Below, one piece after another: positions 3,482 through 51,680 of a stretch of 64,000 bases of DNA. Location of the stretch: NCBI RefSeq assembly GCF_030384885.1, contig NZ_CP128613.1; one strand, given 5' to 3'. A model generated the notes under the pieces. That model ran no database searches and was not told the origin of the DNA. It saw nothing but the letters and a program-made list of their open reading frames with translations. Numbering within the stretch: position 1 is the first letter of the stretch; each line of letters starts with the position of its first letter. This DNA comes from Escherichia coli (GTDB lineage Bacteria > Pseudomonadota > Gammaproteobacteria > Enterobacterales > Enterobacteriaceae). The position numbers were made by a program, and so were the translations under genes.

Positions 3482-4300
3482 TCAGAAAAGAGAAGATTGC
3501 TGTGGAATAGCCGGAACTGCTCCGATCTCTGGAAGTGTTTTACGTAAGCCTTCCCACAGGGTATGTACCAGTTCCGGTGCCTGGGCAATATCTGGCGTAT
3601 GTAAAAAAAGATAAGGCGTAGTGGTCTGATGCCACTGCGCTAATTTTTGTAACCAAACCTGAAACAACTCTCGGTTTTGCGTCATATCATCACTACCGAT
3701 AAAACGGATCAGCGGATTTGTCGCCGTCAGCACAGCATGTACGGGAACTTTAGGTTTTTTCCGTTGAGCGTCGCGAATAGCTTCACTGTGTGGGCGTGCT
3801 GCATGAACCGGGCGGCTGTCTAAAATCACCCGATTAACGCCGCGCTGATGTAAACCGCGATTAAGCGTTTGTTCCTCTTCCCCTTTGGCGAAAAACTGTG
3901 GATGGCGGACTTCCACACCATAATTAAACTCGCCGGGAAGAGAGTCGAGAAAATGCCAAAGCGCAGGCAGATCCCGTGGGCCAAATGTGGCAGGCAGTTG
4001 CAGCCAGTATTGCCCAATGCGCGGCGCTAACGGTGACAAGCGAGTCAAAAATTCAGTTACTAAATCATCGCAATGCCGTAATGCTGCCTGATGCGAAATG
4101 GTCGCCGGAAACTTAAAACAGAAGCGAAAATTATCTGTGGTCTGCTCACGCCAGCGCAGGACAACCTCGGATTTTGGCAGGGCGTAAAGCGTGGTGTTGC
4201 CCTCCACACAGTTAAAGTGGCGGGCATACTCTTCAAGGCTGGTGATCCCCAACCGCACCCATTTAGGATGCGACCATTGCGGCAGACCGATGTAAATCAT
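3482..4300 (-). CDS. yecE: DUF72 family protein
   Basis: 272-aa ORF; translation recognised as YecE. Confidence 0.88.
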
Positions 4301-5172: not shown

Positions 5173-6945
5173 ATGCGTACAGAATATTGTGGACAGCTCC
5201 GTTTGTCCCACGTGGGGCAGCAGGTGACTCTGTGTGGTTGGGTCAACCGTCGTCGTGATCTTGGTAGCCTGATCTTCATCGATATGCGCGACCGCGAAGG
5301 TATCGTGCAGGTATTTTTCGATCCGGATCGTGCGGACGCGTTAAAGCTGGCCTCTGAACTGCGTAATGAGTTCTGCATTCAGGTCACGGGCACCGTACGT
5401 GCGCGTGACGAAAAAAATATCAACCGCGATATGGCGACCGGCGAAATCGAAGTGCTGGCCTCCTCGCTGACCATCATCAACCGCGCAGACGTTCTGCCGC
5501 TTGACTCTAACCACGTCAACACCGAAGAAGCGCGTCTGAAATACCGCTACCTCGACCTGCGTCGTCCGGAAATGGCTCAGCGCCTGAAAACCCGCGCTAA
5601 AATCACCAGCCTGGTGCGCCGTTTTATGGATGACCACGGCTTCCTCGACATCGAAACTCCGATGCTGACCAAAGCCACGCCGGAAGGCGCGCGTGACTAC
5701 CTGGTGCCTTCTCGTGTGCACAAAGGGAAATTCTACGCACTGCCGCAGTCTCCGCAGTTGTTCAAACAGCTGCTGATGATGTCTGGTTTTGACCGCTACT
5801 ATCAGATTGTAAAATGCTTCCGTGACGAAGACCTGCGTGCTGATCGTCAGCCTGAATTCACCCAGATCGATGTGGAAACCTCTTTCATGACCGCGCCGCA
5901 AGTGCGTGAAGTGATGGAAGCGCTGGTACGCCATTTGTGGCTGGAAGTGAAGGGCGTGGATCTCGGTGATTTCCCTGTAATGACCTTTGCGGAAGCAGAA
6001 CGCCGTTATGGTTCTGATAAACCGGATCTGCGTAACCCGATGGAACTGACTGACGTTGCTGATCTGCTGAAATCCGTTGAGTTCGCGGTATTCGCAGGTC
6101 CGGCGAACGATCCGAAAGGCCGCGTTGCTGCTCTGCGTGTTCCGGGTGGCGCATCGCTGACCCGTAAGCAGATCGACGAATACGGTAACTTCGTTAAAAT
6201 CTACGGCGCGAAAGGTCTGGCGTACATCAAAGTTAACGAACGTGCGAAAGGTCTGGAAGGTATCAACAGCCCGGTAGCGAAGTTCCTCAACGCTGAAATC
6301 ATCGAAGCCATCCTGGATCGTACTGCCGCGCAAGATGGCGATATGATTTTCTTCGGTGCTGATAACAAGAAAATTGTTGCCGACGCGATGGGCGCATTGC
6401 GTCTGAAAGTGGGTAAAGACCTTGGTCTGACCGACGAAAGCAAATGGGCACCGCTGTGGGTTATCGACTTCCCGATGTTTGAAGACGACGGTGAAGGCGG
6501 CCTGACGGCAATGCACCATCCGTTCACCTCACCGAAAGACATGACGGCGGCAGAGTTGAAAGCTGCACCGGAAAATGCGGTGGCGAACGCTTACGATATG
6601 GTCATCAATGGTTACGAAGTGGGCGGTGGTTCTGTGCGTATCCATAATGGTGATATGCAGCAGACGGTGTTTGGCATTCTGGGGATCAACGAAGAGGAAC
6701 AGCGCGAGAAATTCGGCTTCCTGCTCGATGCCCTGAAATACGGTACTCCGCCGCACGCAGGTCTGGCATTCGGTCTTGACCGTCTGACCATGCTGCTGAC
6801 CGGTACCGACAACATCCGTGACGTTATCGCCTTCCCGAAAACCACGGCGGCAGCATGTCTGATGACCGAAGCGCCAAGCTTTGCTAACCCGACTGCCCTG
6901 TCCGAGCTGAGCATTCAGGTTGTGAAGAAGGCAGAGAATAATTGA
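5173..6945 (+). CDS. aspS: Aspartate--tRNA ligase
   Basis: 590-aa ORF; class II aaRS motifs; translation recognised as AspRS. Confidence 0.97.
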
Positions 6946-6946
6946 T

Positions 6947-7390
6947 ATGACTTATAAGCGTCCCGTTTCTATTCTGGTGGTTATTTATGCGCAAGATACG
7001 AAACGGGTGCTGATGTTACAGCGGCGTGATGATCCCGATTTCTGGCAGTCGGTAACCGGCAGTGTGGAAGAGGGGGAAACCGCGCCGCAAGCCGCCATGC
7101 GCGAAGTAAAGGAAGAGGTCACCATTGATGTTGTCGCTGAACAACTGACCTTAATTGACTGTCAGCGCACGGTGGAGTTTGAAATTTTTTCACATTTACG
7201 TCATCGCTATGCGCCGGGCGTAACGCGTAATACGGAATCTTGGTTCTGTCTTGCACTCCCGCACGAGCGCCAGATCGTTTTCACTGAACATCTGGCCTAC
7301 AAGTGGCTTGATGCGCATGCTGCGGCGGCGCTCACAAAGTCATGGAGCAACCGGCAGGCGATTGAACAGTTTGTAATTAACGCTGCCTGA
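6947..7390 (+). CDS. nudB: Dihydroneopterin triphosphate diphosphatase (Nudix)
   Basis: 147-aa ORF starting 2 nt after aspS stop; Nudix box [20 protein letters not shown]; exact start uncertain. Confidence 0.85.
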
Positions 7391-8716: not shown

Positions 8717-9319
8717 TTATACCGCCTCAGTCAATTCAGGCTGAGGCGTTTCTACTCCCTCCGCATGAATCAACACCAAACCCGGATGATGCCACAAACT
8801 GGCTGGTGTTACGGTTTTACGCTCCCACGGAATCGAACCTAAAAACCAGAATTTCCAGAAAGTGAGTTTTGCGTTCGGATTGCTATTTAGCAGTTCTCCA
8901 AACGTCTCTATTTCACCCACCGGAATACATAACGCCTCTTTATAAATATCAAAAACGAATTTTGAGCAGAACTGGCGGGAAGATTCGTATTTAAAGCCGG
9001 TGTGGTAGAGCTTATGCAACCGTCCGGGGACCTTTTCGACCAGAGCAAGTTTTTGCTCTGCGGTTAAACCTCCTGCGAGGCGGCGAACACCGTAGCGTTG
9101 ATCGGTCGACCGTTCAATAAATCGTGACAAAGTTGTGATTGTGGAGAGCGGAACTCGACTCTCCGCAACCAGGTAATCATCACCGTCATGTCCGATGATT
9201 ATCCCCACATGGTTGCTCCAGCATTTCGAGGCTGCAGAGATTTGCCCAAACAGGCGAGCACCGATGCAGGTAAAAACAATATCACCGGTTTCATATTTAG
9301 CTGGGTAATTTATTTTCAC
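8717..9319 (-). CDS. yebB: DUF830 family protein
   Basis: 200-aa ORF convergent on ruvC; translation recognised as YebB. Confidence 0.82.
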
Positions 9320-9412
9320 TATATCAATCCATTATTTATATATAAAACAGCATCTATCTTTCGTGATGGTAAAGCATTAGCATTGTATTATAATAATGAC
9401 AAGGAATGTTTT

Positions 9413-10237
9413 ATGCGGTTATTTATTAATGTGATAATTATAGTTTCGATCAGTCAATGCGTGAATGTATTTGCTCAAGATAATGTCATCCGCTATCCCT
9501 GGCGATATGGACGTATTTCTTTAAATGAGAATAATGAGTTTGTGCCTCAAATTATTCATATGCGTGATGATATCTACGGCGTGGGTGAAGCTGGTGCAAG
9601 CCTTAACGATGCGAGAATGGCGCAAAGTGGTGTCGCCGTGAGGCTTAGCGTTATACAGCAGGGGCAGGTGGTGAATGCTTTACTGGATTTCTACAATAGC
9701 AATAATCAACCTGCTTATATCTTTGAAGGTGGTTTGATGCCTTGCAATAAAGCCTTTGACATCACAACAAGCAACATTGTCCTTGATGGGATGTGTGGAA
9801 TTTATGATGGGGTCGATGGCTGGCAAGTTATTCCTGCGGGTGATCATTATAAAGAATCATTTTCACTCACTCAGGCTTTTGAATTTCTGCCGGGAAAACA
9901 TCATTATAAAATTAATGCCGGAAGTTTTATCATCAGAGTCGGGGATGATATTTTTGCAAGAGAGGACGCCGAAAGCATTCTTTTTGATTTGATTAACTGG
10001 CGATATGGCTATGTGCTAAAAAGTTATGAAAGGGTGTCGAAGTGGGATTTAATGGCAGGGACTTATGTACTGCCTGAATACTCGGGGGATAAAAGAATGG
10101 ATGAGTATCGAATTTACTCAAACCAGGTGTCGATTGATCTTAATGGTGACGAGTTAGCACATACGGAGTCCTATCAGTGGCGAATTGATAGCGGAATGAT
10201 CCCGGAAAAATTCAGCGTTCAGGAACTCGCTGAATGA
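9413..10237 (+). CDS. Hypothetical secreted protein (signal peptide), unknown family; not part of the K-12 gene order as I recall it
   Basis: 274-aa ORF from ATG 9413 with AAGGAA RBS 6 nt upstream; N-terminus MRLFINVIIIVSISQCVNVFA/QD looks like a SPase I signal peptide; AT-rich codon usage; track ORF from 9188 overlaps yebB and is not the likely start. Confidence 0.6.
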   Translation: MRLFINVIIIVSISQCVNVFAQDNVIRYPWRYGRISLNENNEFVPQIIHMRDDIYGVGEAGASLNDARMAQSGVAVRLSVIQQGQVVNALLDFYNSNNQPAYIFEGGLMPCNKAFDITTSNIVLDGMCGIYDGVDGWQVIPAGDHYKESFSLTQAFEFLPGKHHYKINAGSFIIRVGDDIFAREDAESILFDLINWRYGYVLKSYERVSKWDLMAGTYVLPEYSGDKRMDEYRIYSNQVSIDLNGDELAHTESYQWRIDSGMIPEKFSVQELAE

Positions 10238-10274
10238 ATCGTCCTCTACCTGCTTGCCAGATACAGAGGCGCGG

Positions 10275-10859
10275 ATGAATTTATCAAGCGTATTCAATCA
10301 GCTTTTAATCTCATTTGCTCTTGCCGGGACGTTGATATTAAGCAGCTATCTCATGAAAGCTCACTACCCACGTTTCAGGAAGCCAATTGCGCTCTTTTAC
10401 TTCTTTTTAGCGATTTATACCAGTTATGCTGCCGTTCAGGAGTATGAGTACCACCGCAATAGCTTGACTACGCTCGCAAAAGTTTCTTCGATTCGTTATA
10501 CCAGTAATTTTAAGCGTAGCGCCTCGCACTCCTGCAATTTACTGCGGGGAGGAAGGATTGATTGCTCGGGGCTGTATGCCTATGACCTGACCTGGCAGAT
10601 TGACGGTAAGACCTGGAATTTGCATGTTGAGGACAAGCGTATAAAACCAGGAATCACCATGTGCGTGAAGGTTGTAAAAGATCGCCCCGCCATCGGGAAA
10701 CCCTGTGAAAACGTGTTTTTCAATATCAGCCCTTTGCCGATTCTGATAGCTATATGGGCAATAAGCGCATTTATATTTGCGGTCTTACTCCTTCACCAAC
10801 TAAAAAAATGCCGCGAATGGAAGCACGCCAGCAAGGAACGTGGAAAAATTGGCCATTAG
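10275..10859 (+). CDS. Hypothetical membrane protein, three predicted TM helices with Cys-rich loop, unknown family
   Basis: 194-aa ORF from ATG 10275 with GAGG RBS; 37 nt after upstream ORF stop; hydrophobic helices near N-terminus (x2) and C-terminus; basic C-terminal tail; AT-rich. Confidence 0.55.
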   Translation: MNLSSVFNQLLISFALAGTLILSSYLMKAHYPRFRKPIALFYFFLAIYTSYAAVQEYEYHRNSLTTLAKVSSIRYTSNFKRSASHSCNLLRGGRIDCSGLYAYDLTWQIDGKTWNLHVEDKRIKPGITMCVKVVKDRPAIGKPCENVFFNISPLPILIAIWAISAFIFAVLLLHQLKKCREWKHASKERGKIGH

Positions 10860-10957
10860 AAGTCAAAGAAAGAGTGCGATGTAAGGTGATTCATAGAAAA
10901 TTTCAGATACCGTGAGCCAAAGGATTATCAGTTCTGAAATGATTTAATATCATCCCT

Positions 10958-12803: not shown

Positions 12804-13589
12804 TTAGCTGGCCTGCTTTTTCATCATACTGATAATAAATAACAGTGCCGCACATAGCACTACCGACGGACCCGCCGGCGTATCGTAAAATGCGGAAAAG
12901 GTTAAACCGCCAGTTACTGCCACCATTCCCACCAAAACAGCGACACCGGCCATCTGTTCCGGCGTGCGGGCAAAGCGACGCGCTGTAGCTGCAGGAATAA
13001 TCAGCAGCGAAGTAATAATCAACGCGCCGACAAATTTCATCGCTACACCAATCGTCAATGCTGTCACCAGCATCAACAACAATTTCACGCGCTGTAATTT
13101 CACACCATCAACAAACGCCAGATCCGGGCTAATCGTCATCGACAGTAAATTACGCCATTGCCAGAACAAAATCGCTACCACGATGACCACGCCAATCGCA
13201 ATAGAGATGAGATCTTCTGGCGTCACTGCCAGCAAATCACCGAACAGGTAAGCCATCAAGTCAACACGAATGTTAGACATCAGACTAACGACTACCAGGC
13301 CCAGCGAGAGGGCACTGTGTGCCATAATCCCTAATAACGTGTCGATCGCCAGCTGTGGGCGCTTTTCCAGCCATACCAGACCACCCGCAAGCAGCAGCGT
13401 AACCGCAATCACCGCATAGAATGGATTAACGTCCAGCAGCAAACCAAACGCGACGCCAAGTAACGAGGCATGAGCCAGCGTATCACCGAAATAAGACATA
13501 CGACGCCAGACCACAAACGAACCCAGCGGACCCGCGGCACAGGCGAGCATGATCCCGGCTAACCAACCAGGAAATAATAATTCAATCAT
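12804..13589 (-). CDS. znuB: Zinc ABC transporter permease
   Basis: 261-aa hydrophobic ORF; translation recognised as ZnuB. Confidence 0.93.
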
Positions 13590-28135: not shown

Positions 28136-30882
<2,747 letters not shown>

Positions 30883-33709: not shown

Positions 33710-34010
33710 CATTTAAGCTGATGACCACCACGCTTTTTATTGACCATTTTGCACGCAAACTGGAAAACCTGGCGTCGTCATCTATTCTTAAAGGGCAAGG
33801 CAACTAAGCCTGCATTAATGCCAACTTTTAGCGCACGGCTCTCTCCCAAGAGCCATTTCCCTGGACCGAATACAGGAATCGTGTTCGGTCTCTTTTTATC
33901 TGTTAAAAGCCAGAAGCATTCCCTTCGCTGACTTTATAGTCAACCATAACACACACTCTACTGTCTGAGTCCAGCGTTTTTTAACATTCTTGTTAAGATT
34001 ATGTGATCTT
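33700..34010 (-). ncRNA. ryeA: Antisense sRNA RyeA (SraC) overlapping sdsR; boundaries approximate
   Basis: Inferred from the known antisense arrangement at the yebY-pphA locus; ends not determined from sequence. Confidence 0.35.
33795..33897 (+). ncRNA. sdsR: Small regulatory RNA SdsR (RyeB)
   Basis: Sequence gcaaggcaactaagcctgcattaatgcc...ggaccgaatacaggaatcgtgttcggtctcttttt recognised as SdsR; 3' terminator hairpin plus T-run; sigma-S-like -10 (tctattctt) just upstream. Confidence 0.75.
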
Positions 34011-36778: not shown

Positions 36779-36858
36779 GAGCATGTACCACTGGCAAAAA
36801 AAACAGGTGCGCAGTTTAGCATAAACGCTCCGGCGCAGGCACGCCGGAGCAGTGGGCA

Positions 36859-39492
36859 TTATTTGGGAAGCGCTGTTCCCCATTCACGCCACTCTTTCGG
36901 TTCACTTTCCTGCAACAGGAAGTGCTTGCCTTCCTGGGCTTTCGGTGCCAGCGGCGTACCCGGAGGCGTAGCGAAGGCGATGCCGCCACGGATAAACTGG
37001 TTAAAGGTGCCGGTTTTCACGACGCCGCCCGTCAGACCAAAGTCCAGACTGTAACCCGATGCCAACCAGAAGACGGAATTGTTACGCACCAGGTGTTGAT
37101 AGCGTTTACTGATGCGCATCGCAATCATCACGCGATCTGACAATGTCCCCAGCGTCATTCCGGTAACCGTACCGACTTCCAGACCACGGAACAGCACAGG
37201 CGTACCGATGCCTAACGAACCGGCTTCCGGCGCTTCAACAATAATGCTTAAGCCATCCAGGTAACGCGAATCAGTTATGGTGGCCTCTTGTAATTCAAAG
37301 TCGCGGCGAGGATTGCCCCGGCCTGGTTCGACGTTGATATACGGCTGGAGGATAGTATCAAGATGCTCAACGCCAGCTGCCGAAATTTGCGGTGTGACCA
37401 CTGAGAAGCGTGTACCACCGCGTGCAAAGGTCTGGACATATTCCGGATAGAGTACCGCCTTTGCCTGTACTTCATTGCGCGCGGTAATCAGATCCAGCGT
37501 CTGGATTTGCCCGATATCAATACCGAGATAGCGAATTGGCATCCCGACCGCCAGTTTTCCGGCATCGAAAGCGTGAAGCGTAATTTGCCCGCCAACCGCA
37601 CGGGCCGCTGTTTCGGAAGCATACAGAATACGCTTGTCGCCTTTACGCTGACTGGCGCTGGCACCGCTGAGGTTATCGAAGCTAATAGCTCCCTTTAATG
37701 CTCTGGAGAGCGGGGATGCCTGTACAGTCAGACCACTACCATTTAGCTGAACTTTCGCCCCACCTTCTGCCCAGAACACGCTGTTGCTGGTCAGAAGGTT
37801 GCGATACTCCGGCTTAATATGCAGATCGATATCAAACGCGTTAGCTCGCGGACGCACAGTAATAACTTCACCAACTTCAAATTTACGGTACAGCACTACC
37901 GATCCTGCCTGCACATCCGGCAGCGTCTCTGCACTCAAACTCACGGTTGTGGTGGGTAAATCGCTAAGGCTGTTCTCCAGCGCTTTTTCCAGATTGGCAT
38001 ACAGTGGATAGCTGGCTTTCATCTCGCCTTTATCGCCTGGCAGAATACGTATCCCGCCGTTAATCCATTCTGAGGCGCTGGCACCGAGAAACTCAACGCC
38101 ATCCAGCCCCACCTTCACGTCGACACGGCTGTTGACGACAAATTTGCTATCGCCTTTTACCAGTTCGCGATGCTGAGGCTCGATGGCGACGGTAAAGGTG
38201 ACGCCTTTGCTGGTGAGTTTACGATCGATAACCTGGCCTACCTGCACGCCGTGAAGAATGAGCGGCTGACCAGCATCAATACCGTAACTTTCCGGCGCAG
38301 TCAGGGTCAGCGTCAGAACATCTGGCTCATGGAGCAGGGCTTTTTCGCCAGGAACAACAATAAACTCTTTACGTGGCTCACCGTCGCCCGGCACCAACTC
38401 GAAGGTTTTGCCGGTCAGCAAGGTACTGAGATTAGCATCGCTAAGGGATAATTTTGGATTACGTAATTCGATGCGGGTATTTTCCCGTAACAGCGTTACG
38501 ACGCTGGGATCAACGGTCATTTCTCCGGTGACTTTACCGCCAGGATTTAAATCCAGTTTAGTCAGCTGTCCGACTTCCAGCCCCTGATACATTAACGGCG
38601 TAGAGTCGGCGGTTAATCCGGCCCCACTCGGCAGTTCCAGTTTTATTATTACGCCACGCTGGCTGTGGGCGAGATCTTCATACAGACCAAAGGTATCTTC
38701 CGCCTCGGCAGGTTTTGACTCTTCTGGCGAATCGAAGGCAATTGCACCGTTAACCAGTGCCGCCAGACTTTCCAGTTTCACTTTTGCGCCACTGATACTG
38801 ACGTTGGCATCAACGCCGGAAACGTTCCAGAAACGGCTACCTTTTTTCACCAGATCGGTAAAACGTCGCTCGATCAGGACATCAATCACTACGCCTTGCT
38901 TATTGGGATTGATGGCATAGTCGTAGACTTTACCCACCGGGATCTTACGGAAATATACCAATGAACCACTGTTCAGTGAACCGAGATCGGGGGCTTGCAG
39001 GTGGATCATCAGATCGCCGTTATCCAGCCGATATTTCGGTTGGGTATCGAGTGCGACAAAGTGATCCTGCTCTTTACCTTTACCCGGCATCATGCCGATA
39101 TAGTTACCCCCGACGAGGGCGTCCAGCCCGGAGACTCCTGCCAGCGAGGCTTTTGGCGTCACCAGCCAGAACTGTGTCTCCTCGCGCAGCGCATCTTTCA
39201 TATCGGACTTGATGCTGACTTTGACTTCAATCTTACGAAGATCGTCGCTCAGGCTGATATCTTGCACTGTTCCGACCTCAACGCCCTGATAACGAACAGG
39301 TGTGCGGCCCGGGACGATACCGTCCGCCGACATAAAGTCGATGGTGACGGTATTACCCCGATCCTGATAACTGTCCCAAATCAGCCAACCGGCAATCATA
39401 AGCGCGATGAACGGCAGCAGCCAGAAAGGTGAGATACGGCGTTTATTTTTAATCTGCGCTTCAGTCGTCGAAGCGGGCGTTTCCTGACTCAT
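36859..39492 (-). CDS. letB: Lipophilic envelope-spanning tunnel protein LetB (seven MCE domains)
   Basis: Track ORF trimmed to [13 protein letters not shown]... (877 aa); translation recognised as LetB/YebT. Confidence 0.92.
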
Positions 39493-40744
39493 GTGCATCC
39501 CAAAGTAAGCGGCTGTCCAGCCATTCCACAGCAAGAATAGTCAAAATTACCGCTGCGCCGAAATAAAACGCAGCCGGTCCCATAGTAAAAGCGAGGATCT
39601 GATCGCGATTAATCAGCGACATGGTTAAAGATATGACAAACAGGTCGAGCATCGACCAGCGACCGATCCAGGTCACCATCCGCAGTAACAGAATCCGTGT
39701 GCGTAAACCTTGCTGGCATTTAAAATGAATGCTCAACAGTAAAGTGAACATGACGATCACTTTGGTAAATGGCACCAGAATACTGGCGATAAACACGATT
39801 CCGGCGACCGCAATGTTGCTACTTGCCAGCGACATAATCCCGGAAAGAATCGTATCTTCCTGCCGGCCACCATTCAGATAAATGATAGAAATAGGTAACA
39901 GGTTGGCAGGTAACAACAACACGATTGATGCTAACAGCGCCGCCCAGCACTTTTGCAGACTATGACGGCGACGCAGGCGTAGCGGGATATGGCAACGCGG
40001 GCAGCGACCACGCTGATCGGGATAGCCGGTAAAATGGCATCCCAGGCAGACACGAAGTTTCTCGTCCCTACGCGTAGCGGGGCGCTGTGGATAAAATCGC
40101 GCCCACAGTTCCTCGACATTAAGATGTGACAACGTCACCGTGGTCAATATCACTAATGCAACAAAAGAGAACAGACCAATACCCGCCTGAATGTGCGCAT
40201 AATCCTGCACCTTTATAGAAGCAACGCCAATACCGACCAGATAGATGTCCAGCATCACCCACTCTTTCAATCGCTCAAGCATCAGCAGTACCGGGCGTAG
40301 ATTCATTCCCAGTCGGTTACCAAACCATAAATAAGCTATGGAGGTCACCAGAATAAGGGGGGCACCAATAACGCAAAAAAAGACCATCGCCCCCGTTATT
40401 GCATCGCCCTGTTTGGTCATTTGCCAGATGCCTTGCATGACATTGGCGTCAATACGAATACCTAACAGCCAGATATGCAACAGCGGTTCGCCCCAGGCAA
40501 ACGGCATCAGCAACAGCATGGTGAATGCCATTGCTGCCAGGCGCGTTAGCGACCAGTCGCGCCCGTCACGAATTTTTGCCTGACAGCGCGGACAATAGGC
40601 ACTTTGATGAGAGTTTATCTCGGGTAGGCTAAACAGCATGTCACATTGCGGGCAACGTTGGTAATCACCACGCGGCAGTTCCTCGCAAATTGCCCTCACT
40701 GTTATCTTTTTTGTCGGCGTAATTTGTGGTGTGTTAAGAGCCAT
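39461..40744 (-). CDS. letA: PqiA-family inner membrane protein LetA
   Basis: 427-aa ORF; Cys-pair motifs; 32-bp overlap with letB start; translation recognised as LetA/YebS. Confidence 0.9.
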
Positions 40745-48741: not shown

Positions 48742-49410
48742 TCCTTCCTCAATCTTGAGTAACCCCGTCGTTGAAGGGTTACTCAATTCATCCTGATTAT
48801 ACGCACTGTCATGGTGCAACTGCTTCAATTTAAAACTCTGGTCTGACTTCAAATAATTATCATATTATTTATTTGCGTAACGGGATATCAGAAAAAGATA
48901 TTTAGCCCATTAATTTATTAGGATGTTTACATCGGATTTGTGATTAAGCGTGTTATTATTTATTAGCGAAACGTTTCTCTCTTGATTTTTTTGCGCATTC
49001 ATCAATTTTTCTTATTTTAAATTTACAATACCTTTGGGGATTGACTTCTCTTTGGGGTGATTGATAGCCGTTAACTGACTGTTTTATGAGAAAAAGTGAT
49101 ATAACTTTTTATTCATTGCATAGCAGAAAATGTGATATTGCACGCACTATGTAATAACTTCTCCCATTGGCCTGGAACAACTGAACTTATTGAACTATGT
49201 TAGAAAATACGTCAGTTTAAGTATCTGCCTGAACTGGCAAGGTTAAGCACAATGATATATCGGCGCGTATTCCGTTGCATAAGTGTGCAAAAAAAGTGGA
49301 AGACGTATCGAGATTTGTGCGTCTGATCGAGACATGTTTAAAAATGGCTTGCCATAATTAACGTTGTATGTGATAACAGATTTCGGGTTAAACGAGGTAC
49401 AGTTCTGTTT

Positions 49411-49554
49411 ATGTGTGGCATTTTCAGTAAAGAAGTCCTGAGTAAACACGTTGACGTTGAATACCGCTTCTCTGCCGAGCCTTATATTGGTGCCTCATGC
49501 AGTAATGTGTCAGTTTTATCTATGTTATGCCTGCGGGCGAAGAAAACAATCTAA
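49411..49554 (+). CDS. yobF: Small protein YobF
   Basis: 47-aa [50 protein letters not shown] ending 12 nt before cspC; below the ORF-track size cutoff. Confidence 0.8.
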
Positions 49555-49566
49555 GGAATTTTTCAA

Positions 49567-49776
49567 ATGGCAAAGATTAAAGGTCAGGTTAAGTGGTTCA
49601 ACGAGTCTAAAGGTTTTGGCTTCATTACTCCGGCTGATGGCAGCAAAGACGTGTTCGTACACTTCTCCGCTATCCAGGGTAATGGCTTCAAAACTCTGGC
49701 TGAAGGTCAGAACGTTGAGTTCGAAATTCAGGACGGTCAGAAAGGTCCGGCAGCTGTTAACGTAACAGCTATCTGA
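49567..49776 (+). CDS. cspC: Cold-shock-domain protein CspC
   Basis: 69-aa ORF; RNP motifs KGFGFI and VFVHF. Confidence 0.95.
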
Positions 49777-49823
49777 TCGAATCCACTGATCTGAAGTGTG
49801 AAGACACTTCAATCTCGCTATAA

Positions 49824-49849
49824 AGCCTCGTCGAATGCGAGGCTTTTTA
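49824..49849 (+). terminator. Rho-independent terminator after cspC
   Basis: agcctcg-tcgaat-gcgaggct hairpin followed by T5. Confidence 0.8.
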
Positions 49850-49941
49850 CTTTGTTTTATCTTCGCTCCTGGCGTTCGGATATTTGCCCGCCGCGTGATT
49901 CGCGTTACACTTGCGGCCTTTAGTATCCTGCCGGAGTTGTC

Positions 49942-50751
49942 ATGTCGTTTTCCTGTCCACTTTGCCATCAGCCTCTTTCGCGTGAAAAAAACAGCTATAT
50001 CTGTCCCCAGCGACATCAGTTTGATATGGCGAAAGAAGGGTATGTCAATCTGCTGCCCGTTCAGCATAAACGGTCTCGTGATCCGGGCGACAGCGCGGAA
50101 ATGATGCAAGCACGCCGCGCATTCTTAGATGCCGGACATTATCAGCCGCTGCGTGATGCAATTGTCGCCCAACTGCGGGAACGGCTTGATGAAAAGGCCA
50201 CGGCGGTGCTGGATATTGGCTGTGGTGAAGGGTATTACACACACGCATTTGCCGATGCGCTGCCCGAAATCACCACGTTTGGCCTGGATGTCTCGAAGGT
50301 AGCGATAAAAGCGGCGGCGAAACGCTATCCGCAGGTCACTTTTTGTGTTGCTTCCAGCCACCGTTTGCCGTTTTCCGATACCAGTATGGACGCCATAATA
50401 CGTATTTACGCGCCGTGTAAAGCAGAAGAATTAGCGCGAGTAGTGAAGCCCGGCGGTTGGGTCATTACTGCCACGCCGGGACCGCGACATTTGATGGAGC
50501 TGAAGGGGCTGATTTACAATGAAGTACATCTTCACGCACCTCATGCAGAACAACTGGAAGGTTTTACATTACAGCAGAGTGATGAGTTGTGTTATCCGAT
50601 GCGTCTTCGCGGTGACGAAGCCGTCGCGTTATTGCAGATGACGCCGTTTGCCTGGCGTGCGAAACCAGAAGTCTGGCAAACGCTGGCAGCAAAAGAAGTG
50701 TTCGACTGCCAGACGGACTTTAATATTCACCTCTGGCAGCGTTCTTATTAA
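49942..50751 (+). CDS. rlmA: 23S rRNA m1G745 methyltransferase
   Basis: 269-aa ORF; N-terminal Cys4 zinc motif and SAM motif DIGCGEGYY. Confidence 0.92.
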
Positions 50752-51314
50752 CCGTGGAAGTGCGTCCAGAGGATCTGGACGCCGATGCCGATCAGTACCA
50801 GCCCACCGAGAATTTCCGCTTTCTTCCCAATAATTGAGCCGATAAAGCGACCAACCATCATCCCTAATGTCGACATAATCAAGGTTGCACAACCAATGGC
50901 CAATGCGGTCGCGATAATGTTGACCTGCAGGAAGGCGAGACCAACACCTACAGCCATCGCATCCAGGCTGGTGGCAATCGCGGTGGTTACCAGTAGCCAG
51001 AAACCGTGTCGACGGCGCGGTTCTTCATCTTCATCATCTGCGCCACGAAAACCCTCAATAATCATTCGCCCGCCGAGGAATATCAGCAGCACAAACGCAA
51101 TCCAGTGGTTCCATTCAAGGACAAACCGGCTGGCTAACATGCCCATTCCCCAGCCGATCAGCGGCGTCAGGGTTTCGACGGCACCAAAAATAAGGCCAGT
51201 TCGCAAAGCTTCAGAAAATTTCGGTTTATGGAGGGTGGCACCTTTACCGATTGATGCAGCAAATGCATCCATCGACATACCAAACGCAAGAAGAACAGTA
51301 GCAGTGATATTCAT
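50748..51314 (-). CDS. mntP: Manganese efflux pump MntP
   Basis: Track ORF trimmed to [21 protein letters not shown]... (188 aa); 4-bp convergent overlap with rlmA. Confidence 0.9.
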
Positions 51315-51329
51315 GACAACGTCCTGACC

Positions 51330-51500
51330 GGGGTATCCATAAAACACATCATCGCCCCCAGCAAACATGCATACATGAACAACAAACTGCGATGATTTTC
51401 GCGTTCATGCAGGCATAGCGATTGATGTGCATATGGTCTCGCCTGACTGAAAGTGTTCAGTCCGTACGTGCCACGTTTTGCAACGAGTATGTTGACACGT
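51330..51500 (-). promoter_or_regulatory. mntP 5' leader; expected site of the yybP-ykoY Mn2+ riboswitch (boundaries approximate)
   Basis: Long untranslated leader upstream of mntP; riboswitch assignment is from established knowledge of E. coli mntP, not structurally verified here. Confidence 0.45.
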
Positions 51501-51680
51501 ACATTTCCGGAATCTGGAAATCGGCTACTCCCCAAATGAGGGCGCAACATTAACATATTTTTAGAATATAAAACAACTGTTGGGATATATTATTTCAGCA
51601 GTTAATTGATAACGATTGTCATTTAGATTTATATATCAATGAAACGTTAAAATAAATAACAAATAAGGGAAGGGGTAATA

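Follow-up and report, generated by a model that had tools for sequence, protein, structure and literature searches.

The closest described counterpart of the locus analysed here is the letA/letB pair of Escherichia coli K-12, for which an overlap of '32 bp' between the two genes has already been given (Nature 2026; PMC13017536). In the same work LetA and LetB were detected and purified as separate proteins, and refactored, non-overlapping letA and letB open reading frames carried on plasmid pBEL2071 served as the wild type background for a functional deep mutational scan (PMC13017536). Overlaps between bacterial genes are mostly short, more than 80% being below 30 bp with 32 nt falling in the rarer tail, and between genes on one strand no spacing is more frequent than -4 (review PMC12548453). 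Termination-reinitiation has been shown to couple other overlapping gene pairs native to E. coli (PMC10666635).

The window, that is the whole stretch of 64,000 nt of E. coli DNA that was analysed, shows 100% identity to positions 599609-663608 of the E. coli 2013C-4282 chromosome (NZ_CP027579.1), and the NCBI PGAP annotation of that chromosome was used throughout. Junction coordinates were read from this annotation, from a list of open reading frames and from the raw sequence, and the three sources concurred on every junction coordinate given in an earlier note on this DNA. The claim made there that the 3' end of letA overlaps the letB start by 32 nt was borne out by PGAP, by the K-12 RefSeq record (NC_000913.3) and by the sequence itself. 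In K-12 letA/letB and both convergent gene pairs considered below are arranged as in the window, and the letA/letB junction sequence is identical, with this strain differing from K-12 only elsewhere in the two genes. For comparison, letA loci of 80 Enterobacteriaceae species (LetA identity 75-98%) were used together with distant syntenic letAB loci (L084, L086, L087, L088 and L089; LetA identity 50-36%) obtained by a representative search and contig look-ups; in a word-indexed search for LetA homologues the relatives among the matches listed were all at least 77% identical.

The letA/letB overlap and its length

The letA (yebS) gene occupies positions 39461-40744 on the minus strand and encodes a protein of 427 aa with two PqiA modules, identified from the annotation and from two stretches matching Pfam PF04403 (271.9 bits). 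Downstream on the same strand letB (yebT, 36859-39492) encodes 877 aa with seven MCE (MlaD) domains, seen as seven stretches matching PF02470. The pair has the composition of the known LetAB lipid transport operon, in which a gene for a protein with two PqiA modules is followed by one for a protein that starts with a transmembrane helix and carries 6-8 MCE domains. The LetB protein matches LetB of PDB entries 9n8w and 6v0c, chain 9n8w_B aligning over residues 1-877, and LetA is its inner-membrane partner. The letAB transcription unit may end at a terminator-like hairpin of 11 bp with eight G-C pairs (36826-36851, minus strand), detected by pattern scan only in the interval from the letB stop to rsmF.

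The overlap itself covers 39461-39492 (minus strand; sequence, open reading frames, PGAP and K-12 RefSeq). In the letA frame it comprises two nucleotides of the His418 codon, the codons for Glu419 to Asp427 and the TGA stop (39461-39463), and in the letB frame, which is shifted by +1, it comprises Met1 to Thr10 and two nucleotides of Glu11, so that the letB ATG splits the letA codons as cAT|Gag. Cryo-EM showed no density for LetA residues 419-427, and LetB residues 1-13 were either missing or not modelled, so that the dual-coded stretch corresponds to the flexible ends of both proteins. As only flexible ends are encoded, double coding costs little, and the restriction of the overlap to disordered tails accounts for the safe refactoring of the two genes.

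The position of the letB start relative to LetA was more constant than the length of the overlap. In E. coli and in loci L084, L086 and L089 the letB ATG lies two codons past a LetA ...SRL(L/I)W(D/K) motif and in the phase xAT|Gxx, a phase shared by L087. Overlap length was 32 nt in 76 of the Enterobacteriaceae species and 44 nt in the remaining four, and among the distant loci it was 56 nt in L084, 38 nt in L086, 11 nt in L089 and 8 nt in L087, with a short gap in L088, in the pqiAB-like locus L091 and between pqiA and pqiB of K-12. In the four species with 44 nt an ACT to ACG change, synonymous in letB, destroys the letA TGA and extends LetA by four residues. Overlap length thus varied around an ATG of constant place and phase and reflects drift of the LetA stop codon; from these sequence comparisons it appears to result from drift in a tail under little constraint rather than from selection on the length itself. 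The chance of meeting no stop in nine codons is (61/64)^9, or approximately 0.65, and a length of 32 nt is about what the first chance stop in the LetA frame would give. The letA/letB overlap is real, ordinary and already published, and it is the sole junction in the window that is at all unusual.

Initiation at letB and possible coupling to letA

The letB initiation region is written within the end of letA. A Shine-Dalgarno core, GGGA (39498-39501, minus strand), lies at -9 to -6 of the letB ATG and is formed from the Trp415-Asp416 codons of LetA (TGG GAT); it was invariant in 80/80 species, with a predicted duplex energy of -4.0 kcal/mol with the 16S rRNA 3' end. Directly upstream of this core is a U-rich tract, TTACTTT (39502-39508, minus strand), contributed by the rare LetA Leu codons TTA and CTT, and the third positions of both codons were likewise invariant in 80/80 species. 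A/T-rich Leu or Ile codons occupy the equivalent place in L084, L086 and L089.

Activity of this region was assessed from published INRI-seq data, in which synthetic mRNAs covering -30 to +153 of each gene are translated in a reconstituted cell-free system in the presence of retapamulin. A peak of 30-69 CPM was present at the annotated yebT (letB) start in 5/5 replicates (RNA 59 CPM), compared with a peak of 6-8 CPM at the annotated yebS (letA) start (RNA 541 CPM), although any ratio of peak to RNA abundance spans two different libraries and is crude. The letB fragment therefore initiated in vitro in all replicates without the letA start. In the in-vivo retapamulin profiling reported beside the INRI-seq data there was a peak for neither letA nor letB, and no match was found in the TRAINSPOTTER supplements, searched for in-vivo start-site or N-terminal data, or in a kasugamycin profiling supplement. 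No Shine-Dalgarno site was found in the start region of letA itself, and the LetAB complex consists of six LetB subunits to one LetA.

Taken together, the in-vitro start activity and the 6:1 complex favour independent letB initiation over obligate coupling, and the reading we consider probable is that the letB region, embedded in the end of letA, supports mainly autonomous internal initiation, with the length of the overlap arising from drift of the LetA stop. The U-rich tract and GGGA core are built from the last conserved codons of LetA (...Arg-Leu-Leu-Trp-Asp), and beyond the motif the LetA frame reads on for nine codons past the letB ATG, as an unstructured tail, until the first stop is reached, giving the 32-nt overlap. 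Comparison of the lineages suggests that the position of the LetA stop alone moves between them. On the probable reading, ribosomes would mainly bind the internal letB site directly, making it an autonomous and comparatively strong initiation region, and the weak letA start region combined with a strong letB start would fit a complex of six LetB to one LetA. Ribosomes ending letA may add a minor contribution by reinitiating after a 32-nt step back, which would not be required.

The main competing explanation is obligate coupling, in which letB would be translated only or mainly by ribosomes that terminate on letA and move back 32 nt, or after letA-dependent unfolding of the mRNA. There are precedents for such distances, with backward reinitiation over -38 nt in coat/lysis of phage fr and coupling of the unfolding type at -50 nt in phage MS2 (PMC12548453), subunits of one complex are over-represented among overlapping pairs (PMC10666635), and an overlap was retained in 80/80 species. 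However, a fragment without the letA start still initiates at letB, and no sequestering RNA structure at the letB start was supported, the predicted fold of -70 to +40 being no more stable than shuffled sequences (z = -0.08). The letB start is thus neither silent alone nor predicted to be sequestered, as would be expected of coupling by RNA unfolding, and at -32 the junction also lies outside the stop-to-start distances of about -8 to +10 nt that characterize termination-reinitiation. In native E. coli pairs coupling drops steeply at a stop-start distance of approximately 20 nt (PMC10666635). Reinitiation at 1:1 on a weakly initiated letA could not supply a complex of six LetB to one LetA, which argues against obligate coupling, and the two reading frames could be separated with function kept (PMC13017536). 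The latter result indicates that letAB expressed from plasmid pBEL2071 can do without the overlap, neutrality at native levels being a separate matter. We therefore regard obligate coupling as unlikely. The general claim of the earlier note, that overlap indicates translational coupling, was reasonable for the ATGA pairs described below, but for letA/letB obligate coupling is disfavoured by the evidence. Overlap alone does not mean coupling, and it seems that a weak start upstream, together with a strong one embedded downstream, supplies the 1:6 complex.

Synonymous constraint and the choice of letB start codon

A block of low synonymous variation of approximately 66 nt surrounds the letB start (39461-39526, minus strand; -34 to +31 of the ATG). 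When synonymous-codon entropy was calculated along letA for 72 species, the 11 twelve-codon windows of lowest entropy, out of 400, all started at letA codons 407-417, with values of 0.09-0.19 bits vs a gene mean of 1.19 bits, and in letB variation was back to normal beyond approximately +45. The block is about the size of the 30S initiation footprint defined by classical protection data, and judged from the sequence the constraint fits an embedded ribosome-binding site together with dual coding. Because letA codons 407-418 carry the ribosome-binding site for letB, LetB expression would probably be disturbed by their recoding.

The frozen block reaches approximately 25 nt upstream of the GGGA core, and directly upstream of the core there is a small hairpin, GGCTGGACAGCC, followed by the U tract, which was also flagged by the terminator pattern scan. 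The full extent of the block may exceed what a plain ribosome-binding site explains. A dedicated cis-element that sets the approximately 6:1 ratio of LetB to LetA synthesis, acting as a standby site or a transcription pause site, or an initiation region responsive to letA traffic, could be proposed in its place, and we give this proposal little weight.

Constraint upstream of the ATG could also arise if the letB start were mis-called, the true start being one of two upstream codons and the frozen block then representing dual coding throughout. The earlier note had pointed out that a longer letB open reading frame would overlap letA further, and this was confirmed, the frame being open back to a TTG at 39534 (TTG-42; 39532-39534, minus strand) that would give 891 aa and a 74-nt overlap. 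A second candidate, ATG-6 (MHMSQ...; 39496-39498, minus strand), lies two codons upstream of the MSQETPA ATG, would give a 38-nt overlap and exists both in this strain and in K-12, and synonymous constraint in letA begins near codons 397-408, close to TTG-42. Neither candidate is conserved, however, TTG-42 being TTT in three Citrobacter species of the 80 and ATG-6 being ACG or ATA in 20/80 species, another E. coli among them, whereas the MSQETPA ATG was invariant at 80/80 Enterobacteriaceae junctions. Changes in the extension frame are radical (Trp/Leu/Ser, Leu/Gln and Thr/Ile). Among the distant loci, L084 and L087 have a stop codon 4-7 codons upstream of the letB ATG and L086 lacks any other start codon upstream, which leaves the homologous ATG as the sole possible start in all three. 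No Shine-Dalgarno pairing at usable spacing was found for ATG-6 or for the upstream start generally, the best combination of energy and spacing belonging to the MSQETPA ATG (GGGA, -4.0 kcal/mol, ending at -5). Finally, the INRI-seq peak was observed at the MSQETPA codon on an mRNA fragment that begins at -30, which excludes TTG-42, although the peak window lies 12-18 nt downstream of a start and separates the annotated ATG only weakly from ATG-6. These data make an upstream start very unlikely, and TTG-42 was rejected.

A start further downstream, which would leave no real overlap, is more improbable still. Long annotated overlaps are often the result of start-codon errors, but the next in-frame ATG, GTG or TTG in letB is Met32, which falls inside the transmembrane helix (residues ~14-45), and the hydrophilic stretch of approximately 18-27 residues preceding the SP(F/L)WLLP transmembrane helix was kept in all distant homologues. 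Initiation at a later codon, with loss of the overlap, had been raised in the earlier note as the outcome that would overturn it; on checking, the in-vitro peak sat at the annotated ATG. The choice of the MSQETPA Met as the letB start, on which that note had made the overlap depend, is accordingly upheld by conservation in 80/80 species, the distant loci, the Shine-Dalgarno site, the in-vitro peak and the 877-residue PDB chain. For annotation the letB start codon is confirmed and the longer open reading frame is not the gene. A programmed +1 frameshift at the letA stop yielding a LetA-LetB fusion is suggested by the frame relation only (GAC TGA A being readable as ACT GAA) and was rejected from the sequence as scarcely credible, given established knowledge of such sites, since the P-site codon GAC, unable to re-pair on ACU, is not prone to shifting and, unlike in prfB, no Shine-Dalgarno-like stimulator lies upstream, with LetA and LetB detected and purified separately (PMC13017536).

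Other overlapping junctions and comparison with known systems

The earlier note had listed three 4-bp overlaps, and all proved to be ATGA, formed on the minus strand by the cmoA stop and cmoB start (2250-2253), the yecD stop and yecE start (4297-4300) and the znuC stop and znuB start (13586-13589; annotation and sequence in each case). These belong to the co-directional -4 (NTGA) class, which letA/letB at -32 does not, and they lie within the termination-reinitiation distance of about -8 to +10 nt; by analogy with the pairs studied experimentally, coupling by termination-reinitiation is plausible at all three. In the INRI-seq data peaks of 23-45 CPM were recorded for cmoB (RNA 303 CPM), which has a Shine-Dalgarno site AGAGGA (-5.8 kcal/mol), and of 43-60 CPM for znuB (RNA 930 CPM), while for yecE the peak was 0 in 5/5 replicates (RNA 51 CPM) and no Shine-Dalgarno site at usable spacing was found. 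Because yecE has neither a usable Shine-Dalgarno site nor an in-vitro peak, it is the likeliest of the three to depend on the gene upstream.

Two convergent pairs, ptrB>/<exoX (30220-30223) and rlmA>/<mntP (50748-50751), overlap at their stop codons as had been claimed, the TAA stops of each pair sharing TTAA here and in K-12 (annotation, sequence and K-12), which places both in the tail-to-tail 4-nt class with shared stop bases [TC]TA[AG]. That such pairs have no room for independent terminators is true of the intergenic space, but terminators may lie inside the opposing gene, or termination may be Rho-dependent. A pattern scan revealed no terminator-like site within approximately 500 nt of the ptrB/exoX junction and one at rlmA/mntP (51002-51022, plus strand), the number expected by chance, and the TERMITe supplements contained no 3'-end match for the convergent pairs. 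Transcripts of these pairs probably stop within the gene that faces them or through Rho, and the transcriptional interference raised in the earlier note is a conjecture. Across the window 6/45 co-directional neighbour pairs overlap (-32, -13, -8 and three at -4) and 5/12 convergent pairs are at most 3 nt apart. Two of the annotated co-directional overlaps, of 8 nt in aspS/nudB and 13 nt in yoaL/yoaE, were absent from the earlier note. The ATGA and TTAA overlaps are the commonest overlap types and represent nothing beyond chance or general practice. Elsewhere in the window, an orphan protein encoded at 9413-10237 gave a predicted structure with a mean pLDDT of 37.9, too low to support a search by fold.

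Compared with known systems, letA/letB of the window has the geometry and junction sequence of the published K-12 pair and differs from it in nothing of substance (PMC13017536). The -4 termination-reinitiation junctions of Huber et al. (2019, 2023; PMC6728339, PMC10666635) have the exact motif of cmoA/cmoB, yecD/yecE and znuC/znuB, which are likened to them by motif, and znuCB resembles letAB in that both specify subunits of one complex; letA/letB at -32, however, lies outside the -8 to +10 range of coupling demonstrated in that work. The coat/lysis pairs of phages fr and MS2 (-38 and -50 nt) are like letA/letB in having a downstream start well inside the upstream gene, but the phage lysis starts are silent without coat translation whereas the letB start works alone in vitro, with no sequestration predicted. 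The paralogous E. coli operon pqiA/pqiB/pqiC has the gene order of letAB, with a PqiA-like protein followed by a multi-MCE protein, but there is a 4-nt gap between pqiA and pqiB and a 4-nt overlap between pqiB and pqiC in contrast to the 32-nt overlap of letA/letB, and PqiA-like proteins end soon after the LLWD motif (as in L091) whereas LetA has a read-on tail.

Terminator-like patterns at the 3' end of letA

Three terminator-like patterns, each consisting of a hairpin with a T-rich stretch after it, were observed on the coding strand within the letA 3' end (39510-39657, minus strand), where shuffled sequences give an expectation of 0.6 +/- 0.8. One of these, at 39510-39523 with its adjoining U tract, lies within the block around the letB start codon in which synonymous variation is suppressed (39461-39526, minus strand), immediately 5' of the letB Shine-Dalgarno core.

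Annotated overlaps at other gene junctions

The 93-nt overlap annotated between a 349-residue 'hypothetical protein' and the 5' end of yebB, encoded on opposite strands (9188-9280), is on homologue comparison an artefact of an over-extended start, because full-length homologues of this protein are all of 273-274 residues and begin MRLFINV..., corresponding to position 9413. At the aspS/nudB junction the 8-nt overlap (6938-6949) results from assignment by PGAP of a non-canonical ATA start to nudB at 6938; the first ATG of nudB is at 6947, 1 nt past the aspS stop codon. The nudB N-terminus in the window (..MTYKR) is unlike that of K-12 NudB. In both this strain and K-12 the small protein gene yoaL (55271-55429) shares 13 nt with the start of yoaE (55417-56972); here the annotation lists yoaE as a frameshifted pseudogene.

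The insert between yebB and ruvA

A two-gene insertion of low GC content (33-46% vs about 52%) was observed between yebB and ruvA (9300-10900), with both genes on the plus strand at approximately 9413-10237 (protein 1, the 'hypothetical protein' considered above) and 10275-10859 (protein 2). Of 5426 complete E. coli genomes, only 19 carry the full-length insert, and homologues formed only six clusters among the 5.8 billion proteins searched. In one relative (locus L093) the position and two-gene layout are identical, with 49% protein identity. Neither protein had a match in Pfam, NCBIfam, PHROGs or PADLOC. The N-terminus of protein 1 resembles a signal peptide and its predicted structure (mean pLDDT 37.9) was of a quality below use, whilst protein 2 has hydrophobic stretches close to both its N- and C-terminal ends.

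RNA elements identified with Rfam

The manganese (yybP-ykoY) riboswitch was located upstream of mntP (51445-51541, minus strand; E = 5.5e-10). Its score of 41.9 bits falls slightly below the Rfam gathering score of 45, which is why the default Rfam scan did not report it. Known elements identified were the SraC/RyeA and SdsR/RyeB antisense sRNA pair (33757-33901) and a cspA-type thermoregulator over the yobF-cspC leader (49391-49851). The gene downstream of this thermoregulator is named cspE by PGAP, whereas in K-12 it is cspC.
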